DNA from: Bacteroidales bacterium
GTDB taxonomy: Bacteria > Bacteroidota > Bacteroidia > Bacteroidales > VadinHA17
Reading direction: 5' to 3'
Length of the DNA stretch: 60,184 bases
NCBI GenBank assembly: GCA_019429325.1
Contig: JAHYJA010000001.1
Coordinates: 1 to 60,184 of the forward strand
Shown here one piece after another: positions 45,270 to 60,184 of the stretch. Within the stretch, counting starts at the first letter, position 1; each line of letters begins with the position of its first letter. The notes under the pieces are model-generated. The model did no database searches and was not told the origin of the DNA. It saw only the letters and a program-made list of their open reading frames with translations. The position numbers and the translations under genes are program-made.

Positions 45270-45307
45270 GGGCTGAGGGCTGAGGGCTGAGGGCTGAGTG
45301 CTGAGGG
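45256..45307. repeat. Heptamer tandem array (GGGCTGA) x ~7.4
   Basis: Six perfect copies plus GTGCTGA and GGG. The array contains the rluD stop codon. Confidence 0.95.
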
Positions 45308-45312
45308 AAGAT

Positions 45313-45353
45313 TTGTGAGTTGTGAGTTGTGAGTTGTGAGTTGTGAGTTGTGA
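45313..45353. repeat. Heptamer tandem array (TTGTGAG) x ~5.9
   Basis: Perfect copies. It is related to the TTGTGAT arrays at 55647 and 59567-59648. Confidence 0.95.
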
Positions 45354-45385
45354 TTAGGCTGAGCTGCCATCCCTTGTAATACGCC

Positions 45386-45426
45386 TGAATGACTATTGAA
45401 TGACTATTGAATGACTATTGAATGAC
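45386..45426. repeat. 11-mer tandem array (TGAATGACTAT) x ~3.7
   Basis: Three perfect copies plus a partial one. Confidence 0.95.
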
Positions 45427-45434
45427 CAGATAAT

Positions 45435-45469
45435 TCGCTCCATCGCTTTGTCGCTCCATCGCTCCATCA
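45435..45469. repeat. Octamer tandem array (TCGCTCCA) x ~4
   Basis: tcgctcca tcgctttg tcgctcca tcgctcca tca. Confidence 0.85.
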
Positions 45470-45483
45470 TTCCCTGCTTCCTG

Positions 45484-45590
45484 CTTTGCCAGCCGTCTTC
45501 GTCGGCCGTAGGTCGACTTCGACGACCGAAGGCCGAAGCCTTGCTTTGCCAACCGTAGCCATGCGGAGGTTGGGCGAAGGCTGGCTCCCC
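45484..45590. repeat. GC-rich hairpin block sharing words with the 59.7-59.9 kb locus
   Basis: CTTTGCCAGCC (45484) and GCGAAGGCTGGC (45574) are both also present near 59722/59831/59869. Local stems are GGTCG-N7-CGACC and CCAACC-N13-GGTTGG. Confidence 0.75.
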
Positions 45591-45610
45591 GCTCTACGCT
45601 CTACTCTATC

Positions 45611-46429: not shown

Positions 46430-46890
46430 TTATCGGAAAACTTATAGGGATCGTCATACGATATATCATCCGGCAGTTCGTTGACATCATCCGGCATTCG
46501 GGGGAAATGATCCTTAAGCTGTTCACCTGCAAGCAGGATGGCTTCCGCCAGCCCTTCAGCAAATCTTCCCTGGTTGAAACGCTCCTGAAGAAGCTCTTTT
46601 ATCCTGTCCCAGAAATCCCCGGCGACCTGCGCGTTTATTCCCGAGTCTCCAATAACGGCAAACTGTCTGCTCCTGACAGCCAGATAGAAGAGGACCCCAT
46701 TTCTCAGCTCCGTCCGGTGCATACCGATCTTTTTGAAGATCCATGCCGCCCGGTCCATAACATCTCCCTCCAGAGCCGTCTCAATGTGAACCCGTATCTC
46801 TCCCGAAGTGGCCTTCTCAGCCTCCCTGATTGCAGAAAGAATATAATCCTGCTGATCACGCGAGAAAAAATCCGAGGCTCTGATTTCCAT
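46426..46890 (-). CDS. TPM-domain protein (TLP18.3/Psb32/MOLO-1-type putative phosphatase), cytoplasmic-type
   Basis: 154 aa with a TSGEIRVHIE motif. There is a 4-nt overlap with the downstream TPM gene. Confidence 0.7.
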   Translation of the reverse strand: MEIRASDFFSRDQQDYILSAIREAEKATSGEIRVHIETALEGDVMDRAAWIFKKIGMHRTELRNGVLFYLAVRSRQFAVIGDSGINAQVAGDFWDRIKELLQERFNQGRFAEGLAEAILLAGEQLKDHFPRMPDDVNELPDDISYDDPYKFSDK

Positions 46891-46903
46891 GCTCTTCCCT
46901 GTT

Positions 46904-47506
46904 TCAGAATTTTACCTGGGGCGCTTTCTCAGTGCCGGCGTCCGCTTCGAAATAAGGTTTTTCGTGAAATCCGAACATCGCCGCAAGGATTCTCTGGGGA
47001 AACTGTTTAACAAATGAATTGTAGGCTAATGTCACTTCGTTGAATCTTCTCCTTTCAACGGAGATCCTGTTCTCGGTCCCTTCCAGTTCGATCTGGAGAT
47101 CCCTGAAATTCTGAGTGGCTCTCAGTTCCGGATATTGCTCAACAACCACCATCAGCCTCGACAGGGCAGAACTCAGACCCTCCTGTGCCTGCTGGAACTG
47201 CTGCATGTTCTCCGCAGTCATGTTTGCAGGATCAATATTAACTGAAGTAGCCCTGGCCCTTGCTTCAATAACTTGTGTAAGTGTTGATTGCTCAAAAGCG
47301 GCAGCTCCCTTGACCGTTTCCACGAAGTTTGGGATCAGGTCCGCCCTGCGCTGGTATTGAGTCTCAATATTACCCCACTGGCTGGTGACAGCTTCACTCA
47401 TCGTAACCATGTTGTTGTAGATCCTGGTACCCCAGAGAACAATGCCAAGCGCAATGAGCAAGAGAAAGCCGGCTAAGATTATCCAGATTAAACAACCTTT
47501 CTTCAT
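46904..47506 (-). CDS. lemA: LemA family membrane protein
   Basis: N-terminal TM helix and conserved QYQRRADLIPNFVETVKG and YPELRA motifs. Confidence 0.85.
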   Translation of the reverse strand: MKKGCLIWIILAGFLLLIALGIVLWGTRIYNNMVTMSEAVTSQWGNIETQYQRRADLIPNFVETVKGAAAFEQSTLTQVIEARARATSVNIDPANMTAENMQQFQQAQEGLSSALSRLMVVVEQYPELRATQNFRDLQIELEGTENRISVERRRFNEVTLAYNSFVKQFPQRILAAMFGFHEKPYFEADAGTEKAPQVKF

Positions 47507-47529
47507 CTTTCTGATATTTATTATTTATT

Positions 47530-47537
47530 CAAAGATA
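47530..47537 (-). promoter_or_regulatory. Bacteroidota -7 promoter box
   Basis: CAAAGATA lies 24 nt upstream of the lemA start. Confidence 0.45.
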
Positions 47538-47564
47538 CTTAAACAGCAGATTATTACAAATGAC

Positions 47565-47572
47565 TAAATTTG
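47565..47572 (+). promoter_or_regulatory. Bacteroidota -7 promoter box
   Basis: TAAATTTG lies 23 nt upstream of the ATG at 47595. Confidence 0.45.
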
Positions 47573-47594
47573 GAAATCAATAATTGTGGCCAGG

Positions 47595-48581
47595 ATGAGA
47601 ACAATAGCAATAGTTGCCGGAGGTAATTCTTCTGAATACGAGATCTCTGTAAAAAGCGCGAATGAAGTGAGTAAGACATTGTCTGCCAGATATATAACCT
47701 ATATCATAATGATCCGTGGCATCAACTGGTACTGGGAGGATCCCAAAGGGCGCTTCCACGCTGTTGACAAGAATGATTTTTCCCTGATGACCGATGATGC
47801 CAGGATAAGATTTGATGCCGTCTTCATAGCCATACATGGCACCCCGGGTGAGGACGGGCTACTGCAGGGTTATCTCGACATGCTGGAAATTCCGTATACA
47901 AGCTGCAGCTCTTTTTGCTCAGCCCTCACCTTCAACAAACAGGCCTGCAAGTCATATCTCAGAGAATACGGGATTCCTATGGCTGATTCAGTCTTAATAA
48001 ACAGGAGGGAAGTTCCCGCTACTTCTGAGATTATCAGCAGAACCGGATTGCCCTGTTTTGTCAAACCCAACGCGAGCGGGTCGAGCTTTGGGGTAAGCAA
48101 GGTCACAAAGGAGGAAGAGTTATCATCTGCCATCGAAAAAGCTTTTCATGAGAGCCCGCAGGTGATGGTGGAAGCGTTTATGGAGGGGCGTGAGGTCGGA
48201 TGCGGAGTTGTAAAATCCGGGGAAAAAACTTTGGTATTGCCTGTAACCGAGATCATCAGCAAGAATGATTTTTTCGACTACGAAGCCAAATACACTCCCG
48301 GGAGGTCTGATGAGATCACTCCCGCCGACCTGCCGGTAGAGATCACAGATGAAATTCAGGAAATGAGCTCAGCTGTTTATGACATCCTTGGCTGCAACGG
48401 GATTGTCAGGGTTGATTTTATTATCGTCGGCACGAGGCCATTTTTCCTTGAGATCAATACTGTCCCCGGGATGACGCCGGAAAGCATAGTGCCAAAGCAG
48501 GCAGAGGCTGCGGGGGTAGCGCTTGAGGAGCTCTATTCGATGGTGGTCGAAGACTGTATAAGAAGGGGCGTTACGGCGTAG
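47595..48581 (+). CDS. ddl: D-alanine--D-alanine ligase
   Basis: N-terminal MRTIAIVAGGNSSEYEIS, then HGTPGEDG, an ATP-grasp core and C-terminal EINTVPGMT. The last 5 codons and the TAG stop lie inside the GGGGCGTTACGGCGTA array. Confidence 0.9.
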   Translation: MRTIAIVAGGNSSEYEISVKSANEVSKTLSARYITYIIMIRGINWYWEDPKGRFHAVDKNDFSLMTDDARIRFDAVFIAIHGTPGEDGLLQGYLDMLEIPYTSCSSFCSALTFNKQACKSYLREYGIPMADSVLINRREVPATSEIISRTGLPCFVKPNASGSSFGVSKVTKEEELSSAIEKAFHESPQVMVEAFMEGREVGCGVVKSGEKTLVLPVTEIISKNDFFDYEAKYTPGRSDEITPADLPVEITDEIQEMSSAVYDILGCNGIVRVDFIIVGTRPFFLEINTVPGMTPESIVPKQAEAAGVALEELYSMVVEDCIRRGVTA

Positions 48582-48622
48582 GGGCGTTACGGCGTAGGGG
48601 CGTAGGGGCGTAGGGGCGTTAC
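48565..48622. repeat. Nested 16-mer/8-mer tandem array (GGGGCGTTACGGCGTA x2, GGGGCGTA x2, GGGGCGTTAC)
   Basis: Perfect copies. The array contains the ddl stop codon. Confidence 0.95.
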
Positions 48623-48626
48623 ACGT

Positions 48627-48655
48627 TGTGCCACTATGCAGCTGTGCCGCTATGC
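48627..48655. repeat. Direct repeat TGTGCCNCTATGC x2 (16-nt period)
   Basis: tgtgccactatgc agc tgtgccgctatgc. Confidence 0.8.
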
Positions 48656-48669
48656 CGTAATGCCGTTTG

Positions 48670-50055
48670 TTATTCCAGTGCTTTTTTAAGGGCGCTCGTT
48701 GTTGTGTAATATTTCGTTATCATTCCCGGCACTTCCCAGTCAGGCAGTTTGCCTGCTTCCATGTACTCCAGGAACTTTCCGGTAACCTGGCCGAAATGAG
48801 CCTCATGTCCGACCCTGTAGCTATCCGGGATATTGATCTTAAGTGTCTTTGCATTAACGGCCTCAACTATAAGGTTTTCGTAGGGCAGGGATGCCAGTGC
48901 ACTCTTTAGTTTCTCAGTGAAAAGATCCATATTAATACCCTTTACATTTTCAATGTAAAAGGTAGGTACATATTTCTCATCAGCCCCCTGTTTGATCACA
49001 AGATCGCATTGAGTTCCCCGCATCACCGAATAATGAGTATCTCCTGCTCCGGGAGGTGCCTGGTAATTCCATTCAACAGATACTTTGGCATATATTCCTT
49101 TTAACCGGTAGACCATCTCTCCGTTGGCGTAAACATTCAGCTTCCCATCCTTCACATCCTTCTGGAGGTAAGGAGGAAAATCCTCAATGCCGGTAACTCC
49201 CCTGAACTCCTCCTTCGACATTACTGTTGGCCATCTCCTGGCTTCAATCATCTCCACGTCTGATATGCTCAGGATCTGCTCAGGGAAGCACTCCCACTGA
49301 ATAAGATCTACAAGGTGTGTCGTCACATCAACTATTCCTTCCCCCTGCTGATCAACATCAAAAAACCAGGCCGGACGTATCAGCGGGGCTCCGGAAACAA
49401 TCTTTGAGAAATGGTGAACACTTACCTTTGTTACTGCAGGATCCTCCTTACTGCCGGTTACAAGTTTCCCAAAGACCTCTTCCTTTTGTGACAGAAGCTT
49501 CTGAAGTATTGTAGTTATCTCATACCGCTCAGTCATGATATCGTAAAGCAGGATGCCCTTCTCCTGTGCAGCGCGGAATGCTTTCTCAAGTCCTGGAAAA
49601 TCTTCCGGAAGAATGATCATTGGTTTGTCTGCAAGCACGTTAAGGCCTCCGGCTACTGATCTGCTTATATATTCGGCTTTTTTTCTGTTGTTACCTGAAA
49701 GAACAACCACATTACCGGGCTTTTCCGAAAGCATCTTTTCAAAGAAATCATCTCCCCGGTAAATGACTTCATTCCAGGCTGTCGGATCGGCCTCCCTTGC
49801 GTTGTACGACTCTATCCTGTCGAGATGTTGCTGAACATCAGGACCTTCAGGAGCATAAACATAAACATCTGGGGATACCTGATCGTACATGATTTTCTGA
49901 ACAAGGGCGGCATGAAAATGCCCGGGATCGACAGTGATTAATTTAACCTGATAATCATTTTTCATTGAGTCTGCCGGTTTTTTCTGTGAGCCTCCTGAGC
50001 CGCACGAACTCAGCAAAACTACAGCTGTGAGTATTAACAATAAGATCTTCTTCAT
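48670..50055 (-). CDS. Lipoprotein, putative oxidoreductase (Gfo/Idh/MocA-like N-terminus with a distinct C-terminal domain)
   Basis: Lipobox LLSSCGS. The KLITVDPGHFHAALVQK segment resembles the family annotated as putative oxidoreductase with the Oxidoreduct_C domain. This is from recollection only. Confidence 0.45.
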   Translation of the reverse strand: MKKILLLILTAVVLLSSCGSGGSQKKPADSMKNDYQVKLITVDPGHFHAALVQKIMYDQVSPDVYVYAPEGPDVQQHLDRIESYNAREADPTAWNEVIYRGDDFFEKMLSEKPGNVVVLSGNNRKKAEYISRSVAGGLNVLADKPMIILPEDFPGLEKAFRAAQEKGILLYDIMTERYEITTILQKLLSQKEEVFGKLVTGSKEDPAVTKVSVHHFSKIVSGAPLIRPAWFFDVDQQGEGIVDVTTHLVDLIQWECFPEQILSISDVEMIEARRWPTVMSKEEFRGVTGIEDFPPYLQKDVKDGKLNVYANGEMVYRLKGIYAKVSVEWNYQAPPGAGDTHYSVMRGTQCDLVIKQGADEKYVPTFYIENVKGINMDLFTEKLKSALASLPYENLIVEAVNAKTLKINIPDSYRVGHEAHFGQVTGKFLEYMEAGKLPDWEVPGMITKYYTTTSALKKALE

Positions 50056-50090
50056 TTCTCTGTGATTTATATTATTGCCGGTTGTTTATC

Positions 50091-50187
50091 AAACTCTGAA
50101 ACTCTGAACCGAGGCGCTCCGCGCCGAGCTCGCCGTAGGCAAACTCTGAAACTCTGAAACTCTGAAACTCTGAAACTCTGAAACCTG
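50091..50187. repeat. Octamer tandem arrays (AAACTCTG x2 and x~5.9) flanking a GC-rich core hairpin
   Basis: Arrays lie at 50091-50106 and 50141-50187. The core at 50111-50140 contains GGCGC-TCC-GCGCC. Confidence 0.95.
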
Positions 50188-50189
50188 TT

Positions 50190-51221
50190 TTAATGATTCT
50201 TTACTGCTTCAATAAATGCCATGATATTTTCGCTTTTAACATCAGGCGGCATCCCTCCACCTACGGACCATATAACATGACTGTAGTCATCCGTTTCACT
50301 GAAAGCCCTGGCAACTGCACTTTTCACATCCTCCGGTGTTCCGGCAGCCATAACATCCCTTGGCGGAACGTTTCCGACAAGTATTACATCCGGACCGGCA
50401 AGCTCCCTTATCTCACCCATGGTGTGTGTGAATGAAAAATTAAACATATTGACACCCATTTCAGTCAGGTATTTTGCTGTGATCAGCCCCTCAGCGTCAT
50501 TGTGAAGAAAGCGGACCTTTGAGCCTGTCGTGGCGAAAATCTTACTGAAGTATGGCAGCACAAATTCTCTGAATTCATCTTCTCCGACAAAACCGATTAT
50601 ATCATCAAGTATCAGCACTCCATCAATGGACGGGAAACACTCCTTCTGCCAGCTAATCCAGTCGCATATAAAATCCGTGATCTTTCTTATCAAACGGTGA
50701 GAACCCTCGGGATCCATTGCCAGTGCCATCATAAACTCTGTTGTGCCCATCAGGAAACTGGCAATGTTCAGTGGTCCCCTGGCGATTGCAAACCTGATCT
50801 GATGACCGGCATCCCTTATGGCATTTTCGTTGTTCCTCAGTCTGCTTATCATGAAGGGAAGCAACCCGTCAGTTTTAACGTTTGGCTGTGGCAGCGAAGC
50901 CGCCTCCGAGATATCTGAAATGATCCTGTCAGCATGAGGAAGGTTTTTCTCCAGGAACACCATCCTTGAACCAAAAGCAGATGGTTCGGTACACATACCA
51001 TACTCCGACCAGAAGCCGGGCATGAACCATACATCGGGAAATGTGTTCACCGCCTTGAGGTTAGCCTTGAGCCACATCTCGTCAGATGCGTAGAAATCAA
51101 CATTGGATATACCATACCAGCCTGGTATCCAGGGGCTGTCAATAATAAAGCCTGATGGTTTGTATTCCGGCTTAATTCCGTTGATCATCCTGATCAGATC
51201 ATCCCATGATGAGTTTCGCAT
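50190..51221 (-). CDS. Uroporphyrinogen decarboxylase (URO-D) family protein / MtaA-CmuA-like
   Basis: 343 aa with a TIM-barrel-like pattern and RFLHNDAEG and GGGMPPD segments reminiscent of the URO-D family. This is a low-certainty by-eye call. Confidence 0.4.
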   Translation of the reverse strand: MRNSSWDDLIRMINGIKPEYKPSGFIIDSPWIPGWYGISNVDFYASDEMWLKANLKAVNTFPDVWFMPGFWSEYGMCTEPSAFGSRMVFLEKNLPHADRIISDISEAASLPQPNVKTDGLLPFMISRLRNNENAIRDAGHQIRFAIARGPLNIASFLMGTTEFMMALAMDPEGSHRLIRKITDFICDWISWQKECFPSIDGVLILDDIIGFVGEDEFREFVLPYFSKIFATTGSKVRFLHNDAEGLITAKYLTEMGVNMFNFSFTHTMGEIRELAGPDVILVGNVPPRDVMAAGTPEDVKSAVARAFSETDDYSHVIWSVGGGMPPDVKSENIMAFIEAVKNH

Positions 51222-51277
51222 ATTCCCGGGGATAAATAATGTAAATCTGCTTCGACTTTAAAATTGAGAATTATTTT

Positions 51278-54169
51278 TCAGGAATTAAAATTAAATGTCT
51301 CCATTCTGTACGAATCGATCGGATCGCATATGCAAACCAGGTTTCTGTCGCCGTACCCGTCGTCGACACGCCCGACTGAAGGCCAGAACTTGCTCTCGAC
51401 AATCCATTTAAGAGGAAAGGCTGCTTTCTGCCGGCTGTATGCATGGTTCCATTCATCAGCCGTTACCACTTTAACTGTATGAGGGGCATTGTGAAGAACA
51501 TTATCCTCCTTGTCCGCCTTGCCTTCACTTATCTCCCTGATCTCCTTCCATATCGATTTCAAAGCATCAATGAACTTGTCAAGTTCCTGTAACGACTCTG
51601 ACTCAGTGGGCTCAACCATCAGCGTGCCATGCACCGGGAATGAGAGCGTCGGGGCATGAAATCCATAATCCATGAGTCGTTTGGCGATATCCGCTTCGGT
51701 TATACCTGCTTCAGTCTTGAAATTCCTGCAGTCGAGTATCATCTCATGCGCAACAAATCCTGTTGTGCCGGAATAAAGTGTTTTATACCAGTTTTTCAGT
51801 GATGCGGCAATATAATTCGCATTAAGGATGGCGTATTCCGTAGCCTTCGTCAGTCCGTCAGGACCCATCATCATAATATAGGCATGTGAAATTGCCAGGA
51901 TCAGCCCACTTCCGAAGGGTGCAGAAGCGACCGCTGATATAGCGTGGCTTCCTCCTGTTTTTACATGAGGGTGCGATGGCAGAAATTCCGACAGTTTGTC
52001 ATTCACGAGTATGGGTCCCATCCCTGGGCCACCACCTCCGTGGGGAATAGCAAATGTCTTGTGAAGGTTAAGATGGCACACATCAGCGCCTATGTGACCG
52101 GGATTTGTCAGCCCGACCTGTGCGTTCATATTGGCACCATCCATATATACAAGACCTCCGTTTTCGTGGATGATTTTGCACATCTCCGTCACCTCTGCTT
52201 CGAAAACACCGTGCGTTGAGGGATAGGTAATCATAAAGCATGAAAGGGCCTCCCTGTTCTCCTCAGCCTTCCTTCTAAGGTCTTCCAGACTGATATTCCC
52301 TTTCTCGTCACACTCCACGACAACAACCTTCATCCCTGCCATTACCGCACTAGCAGGGTTTGTACCGTGAGCCGATGAAGGGATAAGGGCTATGTTCCGG
52401 TGCCCCTCCCCTCTGGTCTGGTGATACTCCCTGATCACAAGCAGTCCGGTATATTCACCCGCTGCTCCCGAGTTAGGCTGGAAGGAAATGGCCGGAAAGC
52501 CTGTGATCTCCTTAAGGGCTTCACCCAGCTCATCCATAAGCTGGTAGTAACCCTCAGCCTGATCTTTGGGTACAAAGGGATGAATATTCGCAAATTCCGG
52601 CCAGCTCAGAGGAAACATTGATGTTGCAGGATTCAGCTTCATCGTACATGATCCAAGCGATATCATACTGTGTGTCAATGAGAAATCCTTGCGCTCCAGC
52701 ATCTTGATATAGCGCATCATCTCTGTCTCGCTGTGATACCTGTTAAAAGCCGGTCCCCTGAGGAAGGTTGATTTTCTTATAAACTTCTCTTCGAAACAGT
52801 TGCAATCACACAACGATTCGATCTTCTCAGCCTGCCTGCCTGCCGCTTTGGCAAATATCCCGGCAATAATGTTTATCTCATTCAGGGAGGTCACTTCATC
52901 GGTACTTATAATAACAGTGTCATCCTCCGGATAATAGAAATTCATTCCTGCCTCTTCTGCTTCTCTTCGTATTTCGTCCGGTTTAATACCTTCGTGCAGG
53001 CCAATTTTTATAGTGTCAAAGAACTGGGAGTTATGCTGAATATACCCGAGCTTCCTTAGGGCTGTACCAAGTGTGCAGGAAGACTGGTTGATATGGTTGG
53101 CTATTCTTCTGAGGCCCTCCGGCCCGTGATACTGGGCATACATACCCGACATTGTTGCCAGCAGCGCCTGTGCCGTGCATATGTTTGATGTTGCCCTCTC
53201 ACGCTTGATATGCTGTTCTCTTGTCTGAAGCGCCATCCTCATCGCATGATTGCCCTGGGCATCGACCGAAACGCCTATTATGCGCCCGGGCATATTTCTT
53301 TTAAGCTCCTCACGGGTGGCAAAGAATCCGGCATGAGGGCCGCCAAAACTCATTGGCAGTCCCATACGCTGATTGGAACCCACAACAATATCCGCTCCCC
53401 ATTCACCGGGAGGAGTGAGCAGGGCAAGGCTCATCAGATCAGCTGCTGCTGCAACAAGGAGACCGGCTTTGTGCACTCTGTCAGTAAATTCCGCGAAGTC
53501 GCGTATCATCCCCGAAGCTGACGGATACTGTATGAATGCTCCGAAGAACGATTCATCCGGCACAAATTCGTTAAAACTGCCTCTGACAATCTCAATGCCA
53601 AGAGGTTTCGAGCGTGTCTCGATAACAGCAAGCGTCTGAAGGAAGATATCATTGTCAACAAAGAACCTGTTCGATCCTGCTTTGACAGCGGCCCGCGACC
53701 GCGCATTGAACATCATTATCATTGCCTCGGCCGCAGCGGTCGATTCATCAAGAAGAGAAGCATTGGCAACCTGCATTCCGGTCAGCTCGATGATCATCGT
53801 CTGGAAATTGAGGAGAGCCTCAAGCCTTCCCTGAGAGATCTCGGCCTGGTAGGGAGTATAGGAGGTATACCATGAAGGATTTTCAAGAACATTCCTGATT
53901 ACTACCGATAAGGGTGCAACACCATAGTATCCCTGACCAATGAACGACCTGTTCATCCTGTTCCTGATGCCGAGCCTCCTGATATGAGTGAGGTATTCGT
54001 ATTCACTCATGGCATCCGGAAGAGTGAGGGCTTTTTTCAGCCTTATATTGCCCGGAACGGTCTTGCTGATCAGCTCCTCCAGAGAGCCAACCCCTATAAC
54101 TTTCAGCATTTGAGGAAGATCATGTTCCCGGGGACCGTTATGGCGGTTAACAAATTTATCAGTTGACAT
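51278..54169 (-). CDS. gcvP: Glycine dehydrogenase (decarboxylating), single-chain P protein
   Basis: 963 aa. N-terminal FVNRHNGP, YTPYQAEISQGRLE and the PLP-lysine region NLHKTFAIPHGGGGPG. Confidence 0.95.
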   Translation of the reverse strand: MSTDKFVNRHNGPREHDLPQMLKVIGVGSLEELISKTVPGNIRLKKALTLPDAMSEYEYLTHIRRLGIRNRMNRSFIGQGYYGVAPLSVVIRNVLENPSWYTSYTPYQAEISQGRLEALLNFQTMIIELTGMQVANASLLDESTAAAEAMIMMFNARSRAAVKAGSNRFFVDNDIFLQTLAVIETRSKPLGIEIVRGSFNEFVPDESFFGAFIQYPSASGMIRDFAEFTDRVHKAGLLVAAAADLMSLALLTPPGEWGADIVVGSNQRMGLPMSFGGPHAGFFATREELKRNMPGRIIGVSVDAQGNHAMRMALQTREQHIKRERATSNICTAQALLATMSGMYAQYHGPEGLRRIANHINQSSCTLGTALRKLGYIQHNSQFFDTIKIGLHEGIKPDEIRREAEEAGMNFYYPEDDTVIISTDEVTSLNEINIIAGIFAKAAGRQAEKIESLCDCNCFEEKFIRKSTFLRGPAFNRYHSETEMMRYIKMLERKDFSLTHSMISLGSCTMKLNPATSMFPLSWPEFANIHPFVPKDQAEGYYQLMDELGEALKEITGFPAISFQPNSGAAGEYTGLLVIREYHQTRGEGHRNIALIPSSAHGTNPASAVMAGMKVVVVECDEKGNISLEDLRRKAEENREALSCFMITYPSTHGVFEAEVTEMCKIIHENGGLVYMDGANMNAQVGLTNPGHIGADVCHLNLHKTFAIPHGGGGPGMGPILVNDKLSEFLPSHPHVKTGGSHAISAVASAPFGSGLILAISHAYIMMMGPDGLTKATEYAILNANYIAASLKNWYKTLYSGTTGFVAHEMILDCRNFKTEAGITEADIAKRLMDYGFHAPTLSFPVHGTLMVEPTESESLQELDKFIDALKSIWKEIREISEGKADKEDNVLHNAPHTVKVVTADEWNHAYSRQKAAFPLKWIVESKFWPSVGRVDDGYGDRNLVCICDPIDSYRMETFNFNS

Positions 54170-54262
54170 ATATTATATTTTGAATTGTAAACAACGATCT
54201 GAAGAATGAGTTCAGAGATCTGCTAAAATAACAATAAGAAAGCAGTAATAAAAAGAAAAGGG

Positions 54263-54904
54263 TCAATGTTGATTAAAATACGGATTGGTCTTAATCTCCT
54301 TTTCTATGGTCGTCGATCCGCCATGACCCGGATAAACGACTGTATCGGGAGGTAAAGTGAAGAGTTTCCCTGAAATGCTTTTTATCAGCGTTCCATAATC
54401 ACCGCCGGGCAGGTCGGTCCTGCCTATACTGCCCGCAAAGAGCGCATCCCCTGTAAATACAACTCCCTCGTGTTCAGAGTAAAAAGAGAGGCTTCCCTTG
54501 CTATGACCGGGGACATGCAACGCTTTTAGGCTTATCTCTCCGAAAGTGATTATCTGGCCGTCAGAGAGGAACCCTTCCGGTTCGGGGGGAGTCTCCATCC
54601 CGAGGCCGAAAAGCATGGCAATGTTAACCGCATTAAGGCGGTTATACTCATCATCCTCACAGCAGAATGAACGGAGCTTATATTTCTCAAGAATGAACCT
54701 GTTTCCGAAAACATGGTCAAGATGGCAGTGAGTGTTCAGAAGGAGAACCGGTTTCAGTCTCCTGCTTTCAATGAAGCCGTCGAGTTTCCGGAATTCATTT
54801 TCGGTATAACAGCCGCAATCTATAATAGCGCAATCTCCCGATTTGTCGGCCAGAACATAGGTATTGACCTCAATGGGTGAGAAAATATGTCTGTAAACTT
54901 CCAT
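54263..54904 (-). CDS. MBL-fold metallo-hydrolase (glyoxalase II-like)
   Basis: HxHxDH motif THCHLDH, then later HVPGHSKGS and GDALF. Confidence 0.85.
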   Translation of the reverse strand: MEVYRHIFSPIEVNTYVLADKSGDCAIIDCGCYTENEFRKLDGFIESRRLKPVLLLNTHCHLDHVFGNRFILEKYKLRSFCCEDDEYNRLNAVNIAMLFGLGMETPPEPEGFLSDGQIITFGEISLKALHVPGHSKGSLSFYSEHEGVVFTGDALFAGSIGRTDLPGGDYGTLIKSISGKLFTLPPDTVVYPGHGGSTTIEKEIKTNPYFNQH

Positions 54905-54910
54905 AAGCGA

Positions 54911-55561
54911 TCATGTGTTATTAACTGTGCCTTTCAGCATCGGGACAAAAACAAAGTTTCCGTGCGAAGAGTATTCATAAGTATCTTCACCTGTCCTGAT
55001 GACCACTGTCATTTCCTGCGAAAAGGAATTTCCCAGGGGAACCACGAGCCTGCCTCCCGTTTTAAGCTGTTTAAGAAGGTTTTCAGGTACTTCCGGAGCG
55101 GCGGCGGTTATTACAATACCGTCGTAGGGGCCATACTGAGGTTTCCCCTCATAACCATCTCCGAAAAAGAAATCGGCACTATAACCAAGTGAAGAAAGCG
55201 TTCTCTGGGCTTTCAGGAATAATTCCCTGTGGCGCTCTATGGTATAGACCTTTGCGCCCATTTCAGCGAGGATAGCTGCCTGATATCCCGAGCCGGTGCC
55301 GATCTCGAGAATCTTATCCTTTCTCTTTATCTTAAGCAGAGATGTCTGGACGGCAACCGTGTAGGGTTGAGAAATTGTTTGCCCGGAGGTGATCGGGAAG
55401 GCTTTATCGACGTAAGCATGGTTCAGGAATGCCGGGTCCATGAAATCATGACGCGGTACTTTGCCAAAAGCTCTTAATACTTCCTCATCGGTTATACCCT
55501 TTTTACGGAGCTCCTCTACAAGCTTTTTTCTTTTGCCTTTTGCCTCGAAATTGTCTGTCAT
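54911..55561 (-). CDS. pcm: Protein-L-isoaspartate O-methyltransferase
   Basis: PRHDF, the ISQPY motif and SAM motif LEIGTGSGYQAA. The start is trimmed to MTDNFEAKG because the 54 extra ORF-track codons translate the tandem arrays. A -7 box lies 25 nt upstream of the trimmed start. Confidence 0.85.
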   Translation of the reverse strand: MTDNFEAKGKRKKLVEELRKKGITDEEVLRAFGKVPRHDFMDPAFLNHAYVDKAFPITSGQTISQPYTVAVQTSLLKIKRKDKILEIGTGSGYQAAILAEMGAKVYTIERHRELFLKAQRTLSSLGYSADFFFGDGYEGKPQYGPYDGIVITAAAPEVPENLLKQLKTGGRLVVPLGNSFSQEMTVVIRTGEDTYEYSSHGNFVFVPMLKGTVNNT

Positions 55562-55585
55562 CAGTTGACCAGGTAGTGTGGGAGA

Positions 55586-55593
55586 CAAAAATA
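55586..55593 (-). promoter_or_regulatory. Bacteroidota -7 promoter box
   Basis: CAAAAATA lies 25 nt upstream of the pcm start at 55561. Confidence 0.45.
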
Positions 55594-55646
55594 AGAAAAA
55601 TGTAACACAACCTTTCTGCCGTTGGCTAAAAGCGGAGGACGGGGAG

Positions 55647-55688
55647 TTGTGATTTGGGATTTGTGATGTGTGATTTGTGATTTGTGAC
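55647..55688. repeat. Heptamer tandem array (TTGTGAT) x6
   Basis: ttgtgat ttgggat ttgtgat gtgtgat ttgtgat ttgtgac. Confidence 0.9.
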
Positions 55689-55736
55689 CATCGAACCATC
55701 GAACCATCGAACCGTCGAACCATAGTACCGTCGAAC
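55689..55736. repeat. Octamer tandem array (CATCGAAC) x6
   Basis: Three perfect copies, then ccgtcgaa c-catagtac-cgtcgaac variants. It directly abuts the heptamer array. Confidence 0.9.
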
Positions 55737-55744
55737 GACTAACG

Positions 55745-56299
55745 CTAAAGCCTGAATTTCCCCAGCGGTTTATAAAGCGGCCCCGTTGGCATCAATATGC
55801 TCTCATAAAGGATAACCTCATTAACATCCACCCTCTGGATCGCTTTCTCGGAGTAACTGGCAATCAGCACTTTGAGGTTCTCTGTTTCTCTCAGCGATTT
55901 TATCCGTCCGATCGTAATATGAGGCCTGAACACGCGCTCCTCAAGCCGGAACCCGTTCTCCTTCAGACCCTCAGCTATCTGCTCATTCAACTTATTCAGC
56001 TTATCAGATGACTCTATCCCTATCCAGATTACCCGGGCGTCCCGCAAACTCCTGAAGACGCCTGTCCCCTTAAGCTGAAAGCTGAATTCCCCGAAATCCC
56101 GGCATCTTTCCTTCAGCATACCGGACAGAGACTTGATTTTTCCTTCTTCAGTGTCTCCGAGGAAAGCGAGTGTCAGATGGATATTTGCCGGATCTGCCCA
56201 TTTGATCCTTTCCGCTGCCAGTACAGATTTGAATGTTGCCAGAGTTTTCTGCAGTTCGGGGCCAGCTTCAGCCTTAACAGCTATAAAAATCCGTTTCAC
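55745..56299 (-). CDS. thpR: RNA 2',3'-cyclic phosphodiesterase (2H family, LigT/ThpR)
   Basis: Two HxT motifs (HLTLAFLG and HITIGR) at the expected spacing. 184 aa. Confidence 0.85.
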   Translation of the reverse strand: MKRIFIAVKAEAGPELQKTLATFKSVLAAERIKWADPANIHLTLAFLGDTEEGKIKSLSGMLKERCRDFGEFSFQLKGTGVFRSLRDARVIWIGIESSDKLNKLNEQIAEGLKENGFRLEERVFRPHITIGRIKSLRETENLKVLIASYSEKAIQRVDVNEVILYESILMPTGPLYKPLGKFRL

Positions 56300-56910
56300 A
56301 ACCTACCGGATTCTATTTCAGTGACTATCAACTCAATAAGCAGATCATTTCCAAACGGATCGTAGCTGTCTTTGAGATTGGTGCCGAAAATCCTGGCGAC
56401 AGCCTGCCAGAATGTTGCAGAAAAGGTTCCCCTGTACTGTCTTATCAGTTCATAGGATGTGTTCTGTGTTTCCCTGTCAATAAGCTTTATCAGCAGTCTC
56501 CCCTGCGTTATTGTCATTTCACGGATATCATCCTCATATTCTGCAAAAACCTCCTTCTCGATGTCCCTGAGATATCTTCTCCTGCTCACATCTTCAGGGA
56601 TCTTTTCAAGATGGGCATTAACGTCCCCCAGCTTTGCCCTTACGATAATCGCATAAGGATATACCTTTTTCAGGTTATAAACGAGCCGCTGGTACCTCCA
56701 GAATGCAAACCTGCCCGTGGACTCTGAGCGCCCCATAATCGTTACCTCCTTTATTGCAATTTCTGGCAGGACCTCACCATCTCTTTCAACCTTGTTAAGT
56801 ACGTAGCCACGGCCCGGAAGAGAATCGGTTCCCTGCCGCAGAGTATCATTCTGTCCGGAAGCGGCAACAGTTGCAAGGAGAAATAATACTATTGAAATAA
56901 TGAGCCTCAC
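56296..56910 (-). CDS. DUF4294-like secreted protein
   Basis: It has a signal peptide. The size (204 aa) and a conserved-looking central region (YPYAIIV, LIKLIDRETQNTSYELI) match my recollection of DUF4294. It overlaps thpR by 4 nt. GTG start. Confidence 0.5.
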   Translation of the reverse strand: MRLIISIVLFLLATVAASGQNDTLRQGTDSLPGRGYVLNKVERDGEVLPEIAIKEVTIMGRSESTGRFAFWRYQRLVYNLKKVYPYAIIVRAKLGDVNAHLEKIPEDVSRRRYLRDIEKEVFAEYEDDIREMTITQGRLLIKLIDRETQNTSYELIRQYRGTFSATFWQAVARIFGTNLKDSYDPFGNDLLIELIVTEIESGRL

Positions 56911-56928
56911 TGATTAAACAGGTTTTTA

Positions 56929-56936
56929 CAAAGGTA
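56929..56936 (-). promoter_or_regulatory. Bacteroidota -7 promoter box
   Basis: CAAAGGTA lies 19 nt upstream of the start at 56910. Confidence 0.45.
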
Positions 56937-57009
56937 TCAAATAACAGGCCATTTAAAATAACCGGAAACCATCCGTAAAATTGTCCGGATATAATCGCTT
57001 TCTCCACTC

Positions 57010-57041
57010 CCGTCTTCGGTCTTACTTGGCTCAGTGCACAG
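57010..57041. repeat. 32-nt anchor word shared with 59689-59720 (29/32 identical)
   Basis: ccgtcttcggtcttacttggctcagtgcacag vs ccgtcttccgtctttcttggctcagagcacag. Confidence 0.9.
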
Positions 57042-57070
57042 TGCAGAGGGGCAGAATATCTTAAAATACC

Positions 57071-57098
57071 GATTACTGATTACTGATTACTGATTACC
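57071..57098. repeat. Heptamer tandem array (GATTACT) x4
   Basis: Three perfect copies plus GATTACC. It is followed by ATTACCAACT, which recurs at 59419-59428. Confidence 0.95.
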
Positions 57099-57102
57099 AA
57101 CT

Positions 57103-57188
57103 ATCTCCTGCTTCCGCTTTCGGTTTTCGTTCTCTCTTGTCTCCCCCTCTCCCCCTCTCCTCTTCTCCCCTTCTTTCCTCCCGTCTCC
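57103..57188 (+). repeat. Polypyrimidine (CT-rich) tract
   Basis: About 90% C/T over 86 nt, with an uninterrupted 43-nt pyrimidine run at 57140-57182. It contains GTCTCCCCCTCTCC (57139-57152), identical to 59543-59556. Confidence 0.9.
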
Positions 57189-57241
57189 AAATTTTTCGTA
57201 TCTTGTTCTGGCATGCCCATTTGGGATAATAATAAGGTCTT

Positions 57242-59419
57242 ATGAAATTTCCGGACTTTGCCAGGGCAGATAAATGGATGACGAAAATCCTGAGTTACCC
57301 GGGCATTGATGAAAAAACACTCAGCCAGAAGAAGATCAACTGGATGGCAAGCCTTGCCGTCACTTCAATGATACTGTGCCTTACAATTGTATACCATATC
57401 ATCTTTCCCCACTTGCGAATTCTGATCTGGTACGGTTTATTTCTTACTATTGTCTTTTCCCAGGGGATCATATATCCTGTAATATTCCGCCGTACGGGGA
57501 TTTGGATTTTAATCGTTGATCAGGTACTGGTAGCTGTCGCCACATTCATTGTTATACTCAAACTCGGAGGGATACCCTATTCAGGAGGACTTGTAATGGT
57601 TGGTATTGCCCTGGTCTTTTTTTCTCTCAATTTCAGGAAAAAGAGCCATTCGATCTGGATCTATCTTATTTACGTTATCACAGTGATCCTTGCGGGTATC
57701 CTCCATCCATATCTTACGATACCTCCGGAAATGACTTCTGAGGTCAACATCTCCCTCTTCGTTATTAACATCCTTTGGATATCGGGTTTTGCCATGATCT
57801 TTGTGCTCAGCTTCATTTCCCAGCGCGTGAAGCTTGAGCAGGCGGAAACAAGGCGGGTGAAGGAACTGGAAGAGGCAAAGTCGAGGCTTTATACCAATAT
57901 TACACACGAATTTCGTACTCCCCTTACCATAATCTCCGGCATGACGGACCTCATCCGGAATGAGCCTGAGCGATGGGTCGACGAAGGCACCGAAAAAATC
58001 GACCGGAACGTTCATGTTCTTCAAAACCTTGTCAATCAAATGCTTGATCTGGCGAAGCTTGAGGCCGGGGCTATGACTGTTAATATGATCAGGGCTGATG
58101 TTTACCTCTATATCAGTTACTTGGTTGAACTGTTCCGGTCGTTGGCTGATGAAAGGAATATTGAGCTCCGGTTCACCCCCCATGATGCCCCGCTTATTAT
58201 CGACCACGATCCGGACAAGCTTATGCAGATCCTGTCAAATCTGATTTCTAATTCCTTGAAATTCACCCCGGAAGACGGTACTGTTAAGGTAAGCACATCC
58301 TTGACAAGCAGCGGAGATTATCAGATAAGCGTAAGTGATAATGGTCCCGGAATACCTGAAGAGAAGCTCCCTTTTGTGTTTGACCGTTTCTACAGGACGA
58401 ATGAAAAAACTGATGGATCAGTACCCGGATCTGGCTTGGGGCTGGCACTGGTTAGAGAAATGGTAAAGCTTCTTAGAGGAACAATCGAAGTGAGGAGTAT
58501 ATTTGGAAAGGGAACTGAATTCATCATCTCCCTCCCTGTAACATATGAGGCACCCCTTCAGGAGAAACAACAATTAAACGGTCTTGAAGTGAAGGTTTCA
58601 ACGGATAAAATTAAGTTTAATCATGATGACAGAGCTCCCGGCTCCTCTTATGAATCCGATGCCGGCCATGAAAAACCCTTGCTCCTGATTACAGAAGATA
58701 ACGATGATGTTGTTCAGTACCTCAGGACTATTCTGGAGGATGAGTATGTAGTAATGACTGCCGCCGACGGAAGGGAGGGAGTCAGCATAGCGCTTGAATA
58801 TGTTCCAGACATTATCCTAAGTGATATAATGATGCCGTTGATGGATGGCATTGAGATGCTCAGCATCATAAAGGAGGATATGCGTACAAGCCATATCCCT
58901 GTGGTAATGCTGACTGCAAAGGCAGATATTGATTCGCGGATCGAAGGACTTGAAAGGGGTGCTGATGCATATATTGCCAAACCCTTTAACAGGGATGAAC
59001 TGCTGGTACAGTTGAAGTCACTGACGGAATCACGGAAGAAACTCAGGCAGAGGTATGCGGCAACAAGTCCCCCGGTCCTGTCTGAAGAGAGTGATTTTGC
59101 TATTGAGGATGCATTTATTAAAAGGGCACGTGAGGTTATGACAGCTAATCTGGGTAATGAAACGTATGATATCCAGAGTCTCTGCGGTGAAGTGGCGATG
59201 AGCCGCACACAACTCTATCGGAAGTTCGGGTCCCTGACCGGCACAACCCCGAACCAGTATTTTCTTTCCATGCGACTTCATGAAGCCAGGAAGATTCTCG
59301 GCCTGCCCGACGTCACCGTTGCCGAAGCAGCTTACAAAACAGGTTTTAAAAACATCTCCCATTTCAGCCAGGCCTTCTCTCGCGAGTTCGGCACTCCTCC
59401 GAGGGAGGTCCGTAAATAA
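57242..59419 (+). CDS. Hybrid sensor histidine kinase / response regulator with C-terminal AraC-type HTH
   Basis: N-terminal ~6-7 TM helices, H-box ITHEFRTPLTII, DNGPGIP, GSGLGLAL, a REC domain (LLLITEDNDD...SDIMMPLMDG...LTAK) and an AraC HTH (FKNISHFSQAFSREFGTPP). Confidence 0.9.
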   Translation: MKFPDFARADKWMTKILSYPGIDEKTLSQKKINWMASLAVTSMILCLTIVYHIIFPHLRILIWYGLFLTIVFSQGIIYPVIFRRTGIWILIVDQVLVAVATFIVILKLGGIPYSGGLVMVGIALVFFSLNFRKKSHSIWIYLIYVITVILAGILHPYLTIPPEMTSEVNISLFVINILWISGFAMIFVLSFISQRVKLEQAETRRVKELEEAKSRLYTNITHEFRTPLTIISGMTDLIRNEPERWVDEGTEKIDRNVHVLQNLVNQMLDLAKLEAGAMTVNMIRADVYLYISYLVELFRSLADERNIELRFTPHDAPLIIDHDPDKLMQILSNLISNSLKFTPEDGTVKVSTSLTSSGDYQISVSDNGPGIPEEKLPFVFDRFYRTNEKTDGSVPGSGLGLALVREMVKLLRGTIEVRSIFGKGTEFIISLPVTYEAPLQEKQQLNGLEVKVSTDKIKFNHDDRAPGSSYESDAGHEKPLLLITEDNDDVVQYLRTILEDEYVVMTAADGREGVSIALEYVPDIILSDIMMPLMDGIEMLSIIKEDMRTSHIPVVMLTAKADIDSRIEGLERGADAYIAKPFNRDELLVQLKSLTESRKKLRQRYAATSPPVLSEESDFAIEDAFIKRAREVMTANLGNETYDIQSLCGEVAMSRTQLYRKFGSLTGTTPNQYFLSMRLHEARKILGLPDVTVAEAAYKTGFKNISHFSQAFSREFGTPPREVRK

Positions 59420-59453
59420 TTACCAACTGCTCTCTATGGCTCAGGGCAAGACT

Positions 59454-59504
59454 GTCGTGCAGGTCGTGCAGGTCATGCAGGTCATGCAAGTCGTGCAAGT
59501 CTGA
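59454..59504. repeat. Nonamer tandem array (GTCGTGCAG) x ~5.6
   Basis: gtcgtgcag gtcgtgcag gtcatgcag gtcatgcaa gtcgtgcaa gtctga. Confidence 0.95.
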
Positions 59505-59566
59505 AGAAACTTCTTAATTATGCCCTTGGTATTCGACCTCCTGTCTCCCCCTCTCCATTTTGGTTT

Positions 59567-59648
59567 GATTTTTGAATTGTGATTTTTGAATTGTGATTTT
59601 TGATTTTAAATCACAAATCCAGACTCACGAATCACAAATCACAAATCA
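59567..59648. repeat. Imperfect long inverted repeat built from tandem units (GATTTTTGAATTGT x2.6 facing TCACAAA-type heptamers)
   Basis: The left arm (59567-59603) contains TTGTGAT words. The right arm (59611-59648) contains their complement, TCACAAA. The centre is tttaaa. Confidence 0.85.
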
Positions 59649-59650
59649 AT

Positions 59651-59699
59651 CTTCCTCCTTCGGTCTTCCGTCTTCGGTCTTCCGTCTTCCGTCTTCCGT
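59651..59699. repeat. Heptamer tandem array (CTTCSGT) x7
   Basis: cttcctc cttcggt cttccgt cttcggt cttccgt cttccgt cttccgt. This is the same unit as at 3471-3503. Confidence 0.95.
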
Positions 59700-59795
59700 C
59701 TTTCTTGGCTCAGAGCACAGGCTTTGCCAGCCATAGCTGGACGAAGGACAGCGACGGCTGGGCTCAGAGCTTAGGGCAAGAGAGTAATTCTGTTT

Positions 59796-59890
59796 GCCAA
59801 CTGCCAACTGCTTTGTCAGCCGTAGCTTCAGCGAAGGCTGGCCAACTGCTTTGTCAGCCGTAGCTTCAGCGAAGGCTGGCCAACTGCTTT
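59796..59890. repeat. 38-nt perfect tandem duplication (x2.3), each unit carrying a hairpin
   Basis: gccaactgctttgtcagccgtagcttcagcgaaggctg occurs at 59803-59840 and 59841-59878, with partial copies on both sides. The stem is CAGCC-N14-GGCTG. Confidence 0.95.
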
Positions 59891-59907
59891 CCGTCTTCCG
59901 TCTTCCA
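59888..59907. repeat. Short CTTCCGT array (x ~2.7)
   Basis: tttccgt cttccgt cttcca closes the repeat-rich spacer. Confidence 0.8.
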
Positions 59908-60002
59908 ATTGGTACTTAGACTAAAGAATTTGGGACGCAGAATAAAATGACTCTGGTGCTAATTGAATAATTTGTGTCTGAATTTCAACTAAAACCAGGA
60001 TC

Positions 60003-60184
60003 ATGAAAGTACATCTCAGAATTTTCGTAATAACTTTTCTTATGGCAGGCTCTGCCCTCTGGCTCAGCTCCTGCAAAAAGGACCCTGTTCCGCCTTCCGT
60101 AACCACGGCGGGCGTGTCAGCAATAACCCTTACAACAGCAACTTCCGGGGGTAACGTCACCGCCGACGGTGGTGCCGAAGTCAC
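60003..60184 (+). CDS. Lipoprotein, 5' partial (runs off the window)
   Basis: ATG at 60003. It translates to MKVHLRIFVITFLMAGSALWLSSCKKDPVPPSVTTAGVSAITLTTATSGGNVTADGGAEV. The lipobox is LSSC, followed by a Thr/Ala/Gly-rich surface-protein-type domain. Confidence 0.65.
   Translation, partial: MKVHLRIFVITFLMAGSALWLSSCKKDPVPPSVTTAGVSAITLTTATSGGNVTADGGAEV

Follow-up and report, generated by a model that had tools for sequence, protein, structure and literature searches.

We analyzed a 60,184-nt stretch of DNA from a Bacteroidales bacterium (VadinHA17; GCA_019429325.1, contig JAHYJA010000001.1), hereafter the window, and focused on the spacer at 59420-59907, which separates a hybrid kinase-regulator gene from a lipoprotein-like open reading frame (ORF). 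The spacer falls into a familiar category of bacterial repeat DNA, in which heptamer-class arrays occur together with small palindromic elements. This repeat nest probably consists of neutral or selfish slippage arrays of the short tandemly repeated repetitive (STRR) or long simple-sequence repeat (LSSR) type, colonized by mini-hairpins that resemble repetitive extragenic palindromes (REPs) and small dispersed repeats (SDRs); a dedicated function is not evident. Taken by itself, the spacer is ordinary fast-evolving repeat DNA, best explained as non-coding filler that separates the 3' end of the kinase gene from a conserved, putative operator/promoter block of the lipoprotein gene. In the literature and collections that we searched, we found neither the E1/E2/E3 family of hairpins nor its manner of inserting into arrays strictly in phase.

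Hairpin elements within tandem arrays

Arrays were called with Tandem Repeats Finder (TRF), repeats and palindromes were located with a repeat finder, and the region read was 59200-60184. TRF returned nine rows within the spacer, covering 310 of its 488 nt, compared with a mean of 1.8 nt and a maximum of 43 nt in 500 dinucleotide-preserving shuffles. An earlier reading of the same DNA (the original prediction) had described the spacer as a composite of words seen elsewhere in the window, and this was borne out: all of the components that it listed are present where it placed them, and their words recur above chance (dinucleotide shuffles) in other window spacers (3471, 45255-45600, 55642-55736, and 57000-57180).

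The hairpins that interrupt these arrays belong to one family, E1, of the form GCTTTGYCAGCC-(G/A)TAG-loop-GGCTG, whose members in the spacer measure 31 or 40 nt; the 31-nt form has an outer stem of 5-6 bp. Two identical 31-nt copies of GCTTTGTCAGCCGTAGCTTCAGCGAAGGCTG, termed E1a, lie at 59810-59840 (+; covariance-model score 51.4 bits) and 59848-59878 (+), separated by a single GCCAACT heptamer at 59841-59847 (+). They are preceded by their host array, two TGCCAAC/GCCAACT units at 59795-59809 (+; TRF), and followed by a GCCAACT unit plus GCTTT at 59879-59890 (+), the partial third period of a 38-nt repeat that spans 59803-59890 (x2.3, 100% identity). The 38-mer had been taken as a unit in itself; it is instead a 31-nt E1 hairpin plus one GCCAACT unit of the host array (31 + 7 = 38), recently duplicated. 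That the duplication was recent had been proposed from the perfect identity of the copies, and support comes from a related composite in a relative, L083 (positions 1-215, reverse complement), which holds one E1a (34-65, reverse complement) where the window holds two, with an identical 31-nt core (48/48 nt).

The 40-nt E1 at 59721-59760 (+), GCTTTGCCAGCC-ATAG...GAC-GGCTG, is the CCAGCC/GGCTGG hairpin of the original prediction and matches the E1 covariance model at 29.9 bits (E = 1.6e-5). It is bordered by the left and right relics of a GCNCAGR heptamer array, CTTGGCTCAGAGCACAG at 59704-59720 (+) and GGCTCAGAGCTTAGGGCAAGAG at 59761-59782 (+). The left relic is the core of a "32-nt anchor" (59689-59720) that matches 57010-57041 at 29/32 positions, and the core itself has three matches against 0.08 expected in dinucleotide shuffles. 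Comparison with the orthologous spacer of L083, in which the GCNCAGR array is ~25 units long, explains what the anchor is: not a separate entity, as had been thought, but the junction of the CTTCCGT array with the stump of the GCNCAGR array.

Excising the hairpins restores the arrays in phase. Without E1a, the GCCAACT array is uninterrupted (14/14 matches on the left, a full unit on the right), and deletion of the 40-nt E1 joins GCACAG|GGCTCAG in heptamer phase. The paralogue of the anchor core at 57025-57041 has no E1 after it. In L083, excision of E1 leaves 19/21 + 19/21 matches to the array model. There, E2, a 34-nt hairpin without relation to E1, interrupts a CTTCCGT array three times at differing unit spacings, and its excision leaves 14/14 + 14/14 matches. 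A further locus, L005, carries an in-phase E1 variant inside a TGAAGGTC array and another E1 inside an ATAACNG array. Because array phase continues across the inserts, we conclude that the hairpins entered pre-existing arrays. Neither terminal inverted repeats nor target-site duplications are present at E1, E2, or the ~200-nt composite that contains E1a, and excision leaves no extra bases.

The E1 elements also share their predicted structure. Across five E1 sequences, 40/40 cells pair in the proposed stems, compared with 8-40% in slid controls, and the outer stem has compensatory double changes in three of six pairs (CAGCC/GGCTG, CAACC/GGTTG, and AAGCC/GGTTT). This is suggestive of selection for pairing, which may have kept the stem in these five sequences. 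GTAG occurs in four of the five (E1d has GAAG), inside the loop and just 3' of the 5' stem arm. The two L083 loci that carry counterparts of the 40-nt E1 have the same ends and a different loop. Hairpins also nest within one another: at 45483-45585 they are nested three deep, an E1 carrying E3 plus another 31-nt E1 and measuring ~31 nt once the inserts are removed, and L005 likewise has an E1 containing E3. The window's E1-type elements (45483, 45496, 45543, 59721, 59810, and 59848) are all on the + strand in direct orientation. The CTTCSGT and TTGTGAK arrays are on the + strand as well, the sole exception being the inverted arm of the palindrome described below; these are too few independent events for a test of replication-strand bias.

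Turnover of orthologous spacers

Four relatives share the kinase-lipoprotein arrangement: L001, a metagenome-assembled genome (MAG) in GTDB, L082 (Logan), L081 (ENA), and L083 (JGI). From the kinase stop codon to the conserved block, the distance is 491 nt in the window, 69 nt in L001, 100 nt in L082, 280 nt in L081 (including an N gap), and 530 nt in L083. The flanks of L001 (72% nucleotide identity to the window) enclose only a decayed ACTCAYY array and those of L082 (85%) enclose no arrays. L081 (89%) has the window's palindrome minus one 14-nt unit, a CTTCGG array, and the N gap; L083 (82%) has TTGCCAACTGCTCTCTATGGC, ~25 GC(T/G)CAGG units, TAATCRG units, and CTTCCGT arrays with three E2 hairpins. 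Orthologous spacers thus turn over rapidly. GCNCAGG has ~2 units in the window versus ~25 in L083, and the same is seen in the PCMT-LigT spacer, where ACCATCGA is present in x6.2 copies at 55687 in the window versus ~2 units in L081. It follows from the comparison of orthologous spacers that the edges are kept and that the interior turns over quickly in whole units.

The palindrome is 97% conserved in L081, with one 14-nt unit fewer there (x1.7 versus x2.7). It spans 59565-59649 and is imperfect, with 42-nt arms (59565-59606 and 59608-59649) that are 79% complementary. It consists of inverted arrays, TGATTTTTGAATTG x2.7 facing AAATCAC x5.9, with TGATTTTTGAATTG/TTGTGAT units in both orientations. 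The original prediction proposed hairpins both here and in the 38-mers. The palindrome folds well as DNA (-18.1 kcal/mol, z = -3.9 versus shuffles), and the isolated 38-mer folds weakly (-5.6 kcal/mol, z = -0.6).

This comparison also bears on whether the repeats could have been collapsed, expanded, or joined into chimeras during metagenome assembly. L081 has N runs exactly at these arrays, so assemblers struggle there, and the exact copy numbers in the window come from the assembly alone. Three assemblies of independent origin, one from ENA, one from JGI, and the window itself, agree in architecture and words at the orthologous site, which makes assembly error unlikely; in addition, both flanks are collinear with the relatives, and each array, as well as the 88-nt 38-mer block, is shorter than a typical read. 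We consider an assembly artefact very improbable.

Sharing of modules between spacers and genomes

A covariance model built from the five E1 sequences was searched against 371 kb of Bacteroidales loci and recovered copies that were already known and no others, all of them in the window, L083, or L005. By this model, the window's non-coding DNA (4.6 kb) holds 5 E1-type copies, and E3 scores as a relative of E1. No match to the hairpin modules was found in the viral contigs or plasmids searched. E3 (45490-45535) is identical in L005 at 46/46 positions, while the longest exact coding match is 21 nt and the kinase orthologues share 57% protein identity. The composite at window positions 59676-59912 is collinear with L083 1-215 (reverse complement), with blocks 91-100% identical and flanking genes 82% identical. 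Based on E3 and the L083 composite blocks, the modules are better conserved than the surrounding genes, as expected from recent copying or transfer, or else from strong constraint.

The L083 composite lies in a different spacer, ~3 kb from the orthologous one, as would be expected if one larger cassette of ~200-225 nt (59683-59906; CTTCCGT-GCNCAGR-hairpin-...-GCCAACT-hairpin-CTTCCGT) had moved as a MITE-like (miniature inverted-repeat transposable element) or gene-conversion unit. A shorter paralogue at 57004-57106, the CTTCSGT units that bound both copies, and the concentration of arrays at 45-60 kb, which suggests short-range spread, are in keeping with such a unit. Against it stand the missing terminal inverted repeats and target-site duplications, and the differing unit spacings at which E2 interrupts its CTTCCGT array. 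E1 relatives also occur outside the cassette in unrelated arrays (the TGAAGGTC and ATAACNG arrays of L005, and window 45483-45585 with its three-level nesting), and the first hairpin keeps its stem while its loop differs completely between the two cassettes. A cassette-only origin accounts for some hairpin copies and not for those in unrelated arrays, and as a general explanation, it seems to us quite unlikely.

A more far-reaching possibility is that E1, E2, and E3 are unrecognized, ultra-small (31-41 nt) mobile hairpins of Bacteroidales that insert specifically into arrays without target duplication, nest, and move between genomes. We regard this as tentative and rather doubtful. If true, movement between genomes would explain the identity of E3 over 46 nt despite proteins that are 57% identical; arrays would be landing pads and nests a record of insertion activity, and slipped single-stranded structures at replication forks would perhaps be what is recognized. 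Since E1 is present in some of the sampled Bacteroidales MAGs and not in others, a co-occurrence search for the responsible enzyme is feasible.

Remaining parts of the spacer

The spacer begins at the kinase stop codon (TAA, 59417-59419). The word ATTACCAACT at 59419-59428 (+) overlaps the last A of this stop and has a second copy at 57093. It is a relic unit of a (T/G)(A/G)CCAACT heptamer family, and the orthologous start in L083 is TTGCCAACTGCTCTCTATGGC. It is followed by GGCTCAGGGCAAGA at 59438-59451 (+), a two-unit relic of a GCNCAGR array; this is the position of the ~25 GC(T/G)CAGG units of L083. The GTCGTGCAG nonamer array at 59454-59501 (+; TRF, 92% matches) exists as predicted, with x5.3 rather than x5.6 copies, and does not occur in L081, L082, or L083. 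The word GTCTCCCCCTCTCC at 59543-59556 (+) belongs to the TCTCCCCC octamer family; it has four matches versus 0.55 expected in dinucleotide shuffles, including an exact twin at 57139 inside a TCTCCCCC x4.4 array.

Downstream of the palindrome, a CTTCSGT heptamer array occupies 59650-59702 (+; TRF, x7.6); its unit recurs at 3471-3502, 57008-57025, and 59889-59906, and in L081 and L083. The last of these window sites is the closing CTTCCGT array (+; TRF, x2.6), which is kept at that edge in L081 and L083. The GCCAACT-type unit also occurs in arrays of L001, L061, and L083.

Flanking genes, transcription, and the conserved block

The flanks are as the original prediction described them. The upstream gene (57242-59419) encodes a hybrid kinase-regulator with HisKA, HATPase_c, receiver, and AraC/HTH_18 domains (Pfam). 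A lipoprotein-type signal opens the downstream ORF (from 60003), whose L081 orthologue has 450 aa and a Fib_succ_major domain. The two genes are co-oriented around the nest. The nearest genome matches are uncultured Bacteroidales MAGs, with kinase protein identity of at most 69%. Exact-protein look-ups for the kinase, a metallo-beta-lactamase, and LigT returned no identical protein on record, and the closest contigs have 82-89% nucleotide identity. All 48 window ORFs scanned are ordinary chromosomal genes (e.g., DnaB, GldB, Tgt, GcvP, Ddl, and RsmG), and none of them encodes a transposase, HUH protein, or reverse transcriptase.

No intrinsic terminator (GC-rich hairpin plus T-run) was found in 59300-60184 on either strand. 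A sigma-70-type promoter was not detected in or near the spacer by a scan that does not cover Bacteroidetes promoters, and neither an Rfam family at gathering score nor a tRNA was found there. Just downstream of the arrays, a conserved block at 59909-59950 (+) contains two 21-nt direct half-sites, TTGGTAC..AGA..AAA and TTGGGAC..AGA..AAA, which are identical at 13/21 positions. The block, TTGGTACTTAGACTAAAGAATTTGGGACGCAGAATAAAA, is found just upstream of the lipoprotein gene in L001, L081, L082, and L083, and GGGAC-type motifs also occur downstream of the kinase gene in L004, L005, L007, and L084-L086 (relatives 57-89% identical). In L084 and L085, the half-site motif is duplicated around a ~330-nt hairpin-rich insert. 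The 59909-59950 segment lies outside the repeats and is likely the operator/promoter of the lipoprotein gene; as a candidate operator, its half-sites may be bound by the hybrid kinase through its AraC-type domain, which would thereby control that gene. The arrays, ending at 59906, lie upstream of the block (59909-60002) and in neither ORF. This is not the arrangement of a phase-variable contingency locus, in which a simple repeat sits within an ORF or separates core promoter elements and expression switches as units are gained or lost.

We also considered whether the nest is a cis-regulatory or structural element, acting as a terminator, attenuator, or insulator, or as multivalent sites for a protein such as the kinase, through its AraC-type domain, or a single-strand binder of the cold-shock type; changes in copy number would then tune or phase-vary lipoprotein expression. 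Because the genes are co-oriented and no canonical terminator lies between them, transcription must be halted or let through by some other means. The palindrome, with its stable fold and its 97% conservation in L081, and the identical words that flank the kinase gene on both sides also speak for a regulatory role, and an influence of heptamer arrays on expression has been proposed or reported for Beggiatoaceae (PMC4679880) and Nostoc (bioRxiv 10.1101/2022.06.06.494920). However, the 100-nt interior of L082 has no arrays and that of L001 only a decayed one, so the arrays are dispensable, and unit types differ wholly between orthologous spacers. The same words occur in unrelated housekeeping spacers in tandem, convergent, and divergent settings. 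The arrays also lie upstream of the operator/promoter block and not inside it, so changes in unit number would not alter promoter geometry. A regulatory role is disfavored by the relatives without arrays, the lack of conserved unit types, and the nest stopping before the block, and we judge it unlikely. The narrower proposal that the arrays are binding sites for the kinase AraC domain was rejected as the primary explanation: the arrays are dispensable in relatives and present at unrelated loci, and the 21-nt direct repeat is a better candidate.

Could the spacer instead encode a small protein or a small, structured RNA? The RNA fold of the whole spacer (z = -3.2 versus shuffles) and mechanical ORFs of 41-87 aa within it could be read this way. 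The fold signal is what is expected from any set of inverted repeats, though, and no Rfam match exceeds threshold; the sub-threshold matches are to eukaryotic miRNA-precursor models on the palindrome, which we regard as spurious and meaningless. Since the spacer interior is not conserved between orthologues, no ORF or RNA is maintained, and such a gene is extremely improbable.

Proposed formation of the nest

Slippage arrays colonized by mini-hairpins, the reading that we prefer, would have formed in three layers. In the first, units of 7-9 nt (GCNCAGR, GTCGTGCAG, TTGTGAT-type, CTTCSGT, and GCCAACT) would expand, contract, and decay by slipped-strand mispairing, and the array in the palindrome at 59565-59649 was probably inverted by intrastrand template switching. 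In the second, hairpins of the E1 family would have been inserted precisely between array units without target duplication or terminal inverted repeats; the hairpins may be mobile or copied by an enzyme, for which a Y1/HUH transposase of the REP-associated tyrosine transposase (RAYT) or IS200 type would be the obvious candidate, although none was seen. In the third, the 31-nt E1 plus one GCCAACT may have been duplicated recently, by slippage or by unequal exchange between flanking GCCAACT(GCTTT) repeats, to give the 38-nt x2.3 block. The nest would then have no dedicated function beyond possibly impeding read-through.

Several points weigh against this account. Both the conservation of hairpin modules across distant genomes and that of the palindrome between the window and L081 (97%, compared with 89% for the flanking genes) could reflect function rather than selfish spread. 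The stem covariation test comprises n = 5 sequences, and its observed values were equalled or exceeded in 22/500 shuffles. Among the 48 ORFs of the window, there is no visible enzyme that could insert hairpins. We found no truly orthologous site that is filled with E1 in one genome and empty in another; array phase and the paralogue at 57 kb are both indirect evidence. Flanking heptamers are common to some E1 copies (59721 and two loci in L083), which could therefore have spread by recombination of a larger cassette. Slippage and template switching, finally, are read from sequence patterns.

The spacer allows the construction of such nests to be dissected cleanly at the level of sequence. In practical terms, nests disrupt short-read assemblies (evident from the N gaps of L081), generate spurious ORFs, and can supply stop codons or gene 3' ends (45255-45269 and 48564-48581). 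Recognizing them would therefore improve the annotation of MAGs.

Other repeat nests in the window

Arrays make up 19% of the window's non-coding DNA and 0.7% of its coding DNA, and they occur in tandem, convergent, and divergent spacers. They are clustered regionally: seven of the last nine spacers (45000-60184) have arrays covering 15-310 nt, while the 17 spacers of the first 45 kb have only four short arrays. In ~1 Mb of related Bacteroidota loci, the histogram of array periods peaks at 7 (49 arrays), and neighboring inverted arrays that resemble the palindrome are also present in L019, L028, L061, and L081. A heptamer vocabulary of the form ACTG-NNN shared across phyla was unsupported: the 46 arrays include 5 ACTG-containing units, against 2.2 expected. 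Sharing of the same canonical heptamer between unrelated loci is modestly enriched (a handful of pairs versus ~1 expected), and GCCAAC-like units recurring across loci are suggestive.

A second nest at 45255-45610 contains AGGGCTG x7.6, TTGTGAG x5.9, TGAATGACTAT x3.7, TCGCTCCA x4.2, and the three-level nested hairpin. An RluD-like ORF (44238-45269) takes its last codons and stop codon from the AGGGCTG array of this nest. Similarly, the final 18 nt of the ddl ORF (47586-48581) lie within the AGGGGCGT/16-nt array at 48564-48622. Like the AGGGCTG array at 45255, the AGGGGCGT array has regularly spaced G-runs that are prone to form G-quadruplexes, as in the GGGNATC repeats of PMC4692102. The mechanical 270-aa PCMT ORF (54911-55723, -) extends upstream into the TTGTGAT/ACCATCGA arrays; as its Pfam match begins at residue 65 and the L086 orthologue is only 219 aa long, translation probably starts at the ATG at 55562.

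The rsmG(gidB)-rpmH spacer (39821-39962) holds a second hairpin family of perfect 20-nt palindromes, CCGTCAGC-TAAA-GCTGACGG (x2) and CCGTTGGC-TTTA-GCCAACGG. L001 (2850-3450) has the rsmG-rpmH stems with other loops (TTCA and TGAA) and GGGGGC-TGAA-GCCCCC in a ~195-nt unit x3. In L005, positions 11780-11900 hold a GTTATCA/ATAACNG heptamer array of the TAACTGA family (MacGregor 2015) with an in-phase E1 containing E3, and the same MAG has AGTCTTC, TGAAGGTC, and CCCTCCGGC arrays. L081 has N gaps at 3762-3880, 5879-5979, and 8343-8440, of which the latter two fall at the repeat nests of the window. In L083 (3809-4237, -), the kinase gene is internally deleted: its first 44 nt are joined to its last ~280 nt, leaving a 115-aa AraC-only ORF.

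Comparison with known repeat systems

The hairpins resemble MITEs in being non-autonomous, dispersed, and structured, and the ~200-nt composite is in the MITE size range; unlike MITEs, they have no terminal inverted repeats, target-site duplication, or related insertion sequence element. Closer in size are the SDRs of Nostoc, reportedly described by Elhai and colleagues in 2008, which are said to be nested hairpin elements of ~21-27 nt, inferred to be mobile from their presence and absence and without a known transposase. The E1 family appears to share with these SDRs tiny hairpins below MITE size that are nested in each other and in repeat contexts. It differs in phylum and sequence and apparently in size (31-41 nt versus about 21-27 nt).

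REPs and REPINs (inverted REP doublets; Bertels & Rainey 2011, PMC3116915; Di Nocera et al. 2013, PMC3733652) resemble E1 in their 20-40-nt size, imperfect GC-rich stem-loop, and GTAG. Like REPs, E1 elements are extragenic, clustered, nested, and tandemly reiterated with bits of flanking DNA, and the 31-nt E1 is an imperfect palindrome of 20-40 nt, albeit with a weak fold in isolation (z = -0.6). In contrast, the tag lies outside the stem end in REPs (PMC3733652) and GTAG inside the loop in E1, and the E1 copies of the window are direct, on the + strand, and not inverted doublets as in REPINs. E1 also sits inside short tandem arrays. REP families number tens to hundreds of copies and have a cognate RAYT (Y1 HUH transposase) gene in the same genome; there is no RAYT gene in the 60-kb window. 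From Bacteroidetes, PMC3733652 reports the CGTC type and no GTAG-type REPs. The in-register hairpins bear on how elements below MITE size spread, including cyanobacterial SDRs and REPs without an obvious RAYT.

The arrays themselves correspond to the LSSR/STRR class (Mazel et al. 1990, in cyanobacteria; MacGregor 2015, PMC4679880; Rehm et al. 2015, PMC4692102). This class is recognized by tandem 5-11-nt units beyond chance, by an intergenic and heptamer-dominated distribution, and by copy number or presence that varies between relatives, and the arrays described here show all three. According to Mrazek 2007, as cited in PMC4679880 and PMC4692102, heptamers are the commonest LSSRs in prokaryotes. 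TAACTGA arrays are known from Beggiatoaceae, Cyanobacteria, and five Bacteroidetes (MacGregor 2015, PMC4679880), and several Bacteroidetes and Cyanobacteria have intergenic heptamer arrays with no counterpart in close relatives (PMC4679880).

Our host differs from those in the LSSR papers in being an uncultured Bacteroidales lineage outside their coverage, and its repertoire consists of CTTCSGT, TTGTGAK, GCNCAGR, and GCCAACT. Unlike those of Beggiatoaceae, the window arrays show no preference for sites just upstream of start codons, and they differ from LSSRs in being interrupted in register by hairpins and in forming, in some cases, inverted array pairs. The likeness lies in head-to-tail units of 7-9 nt, several unit types side by side in one spacer, and a strongly intergenic distribution. 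As in the LSSR/STRR class, a close relative that shares the gene neighborhood lacks a given array or has a different one, and L005 has a unit of the TAACTGA family itself.

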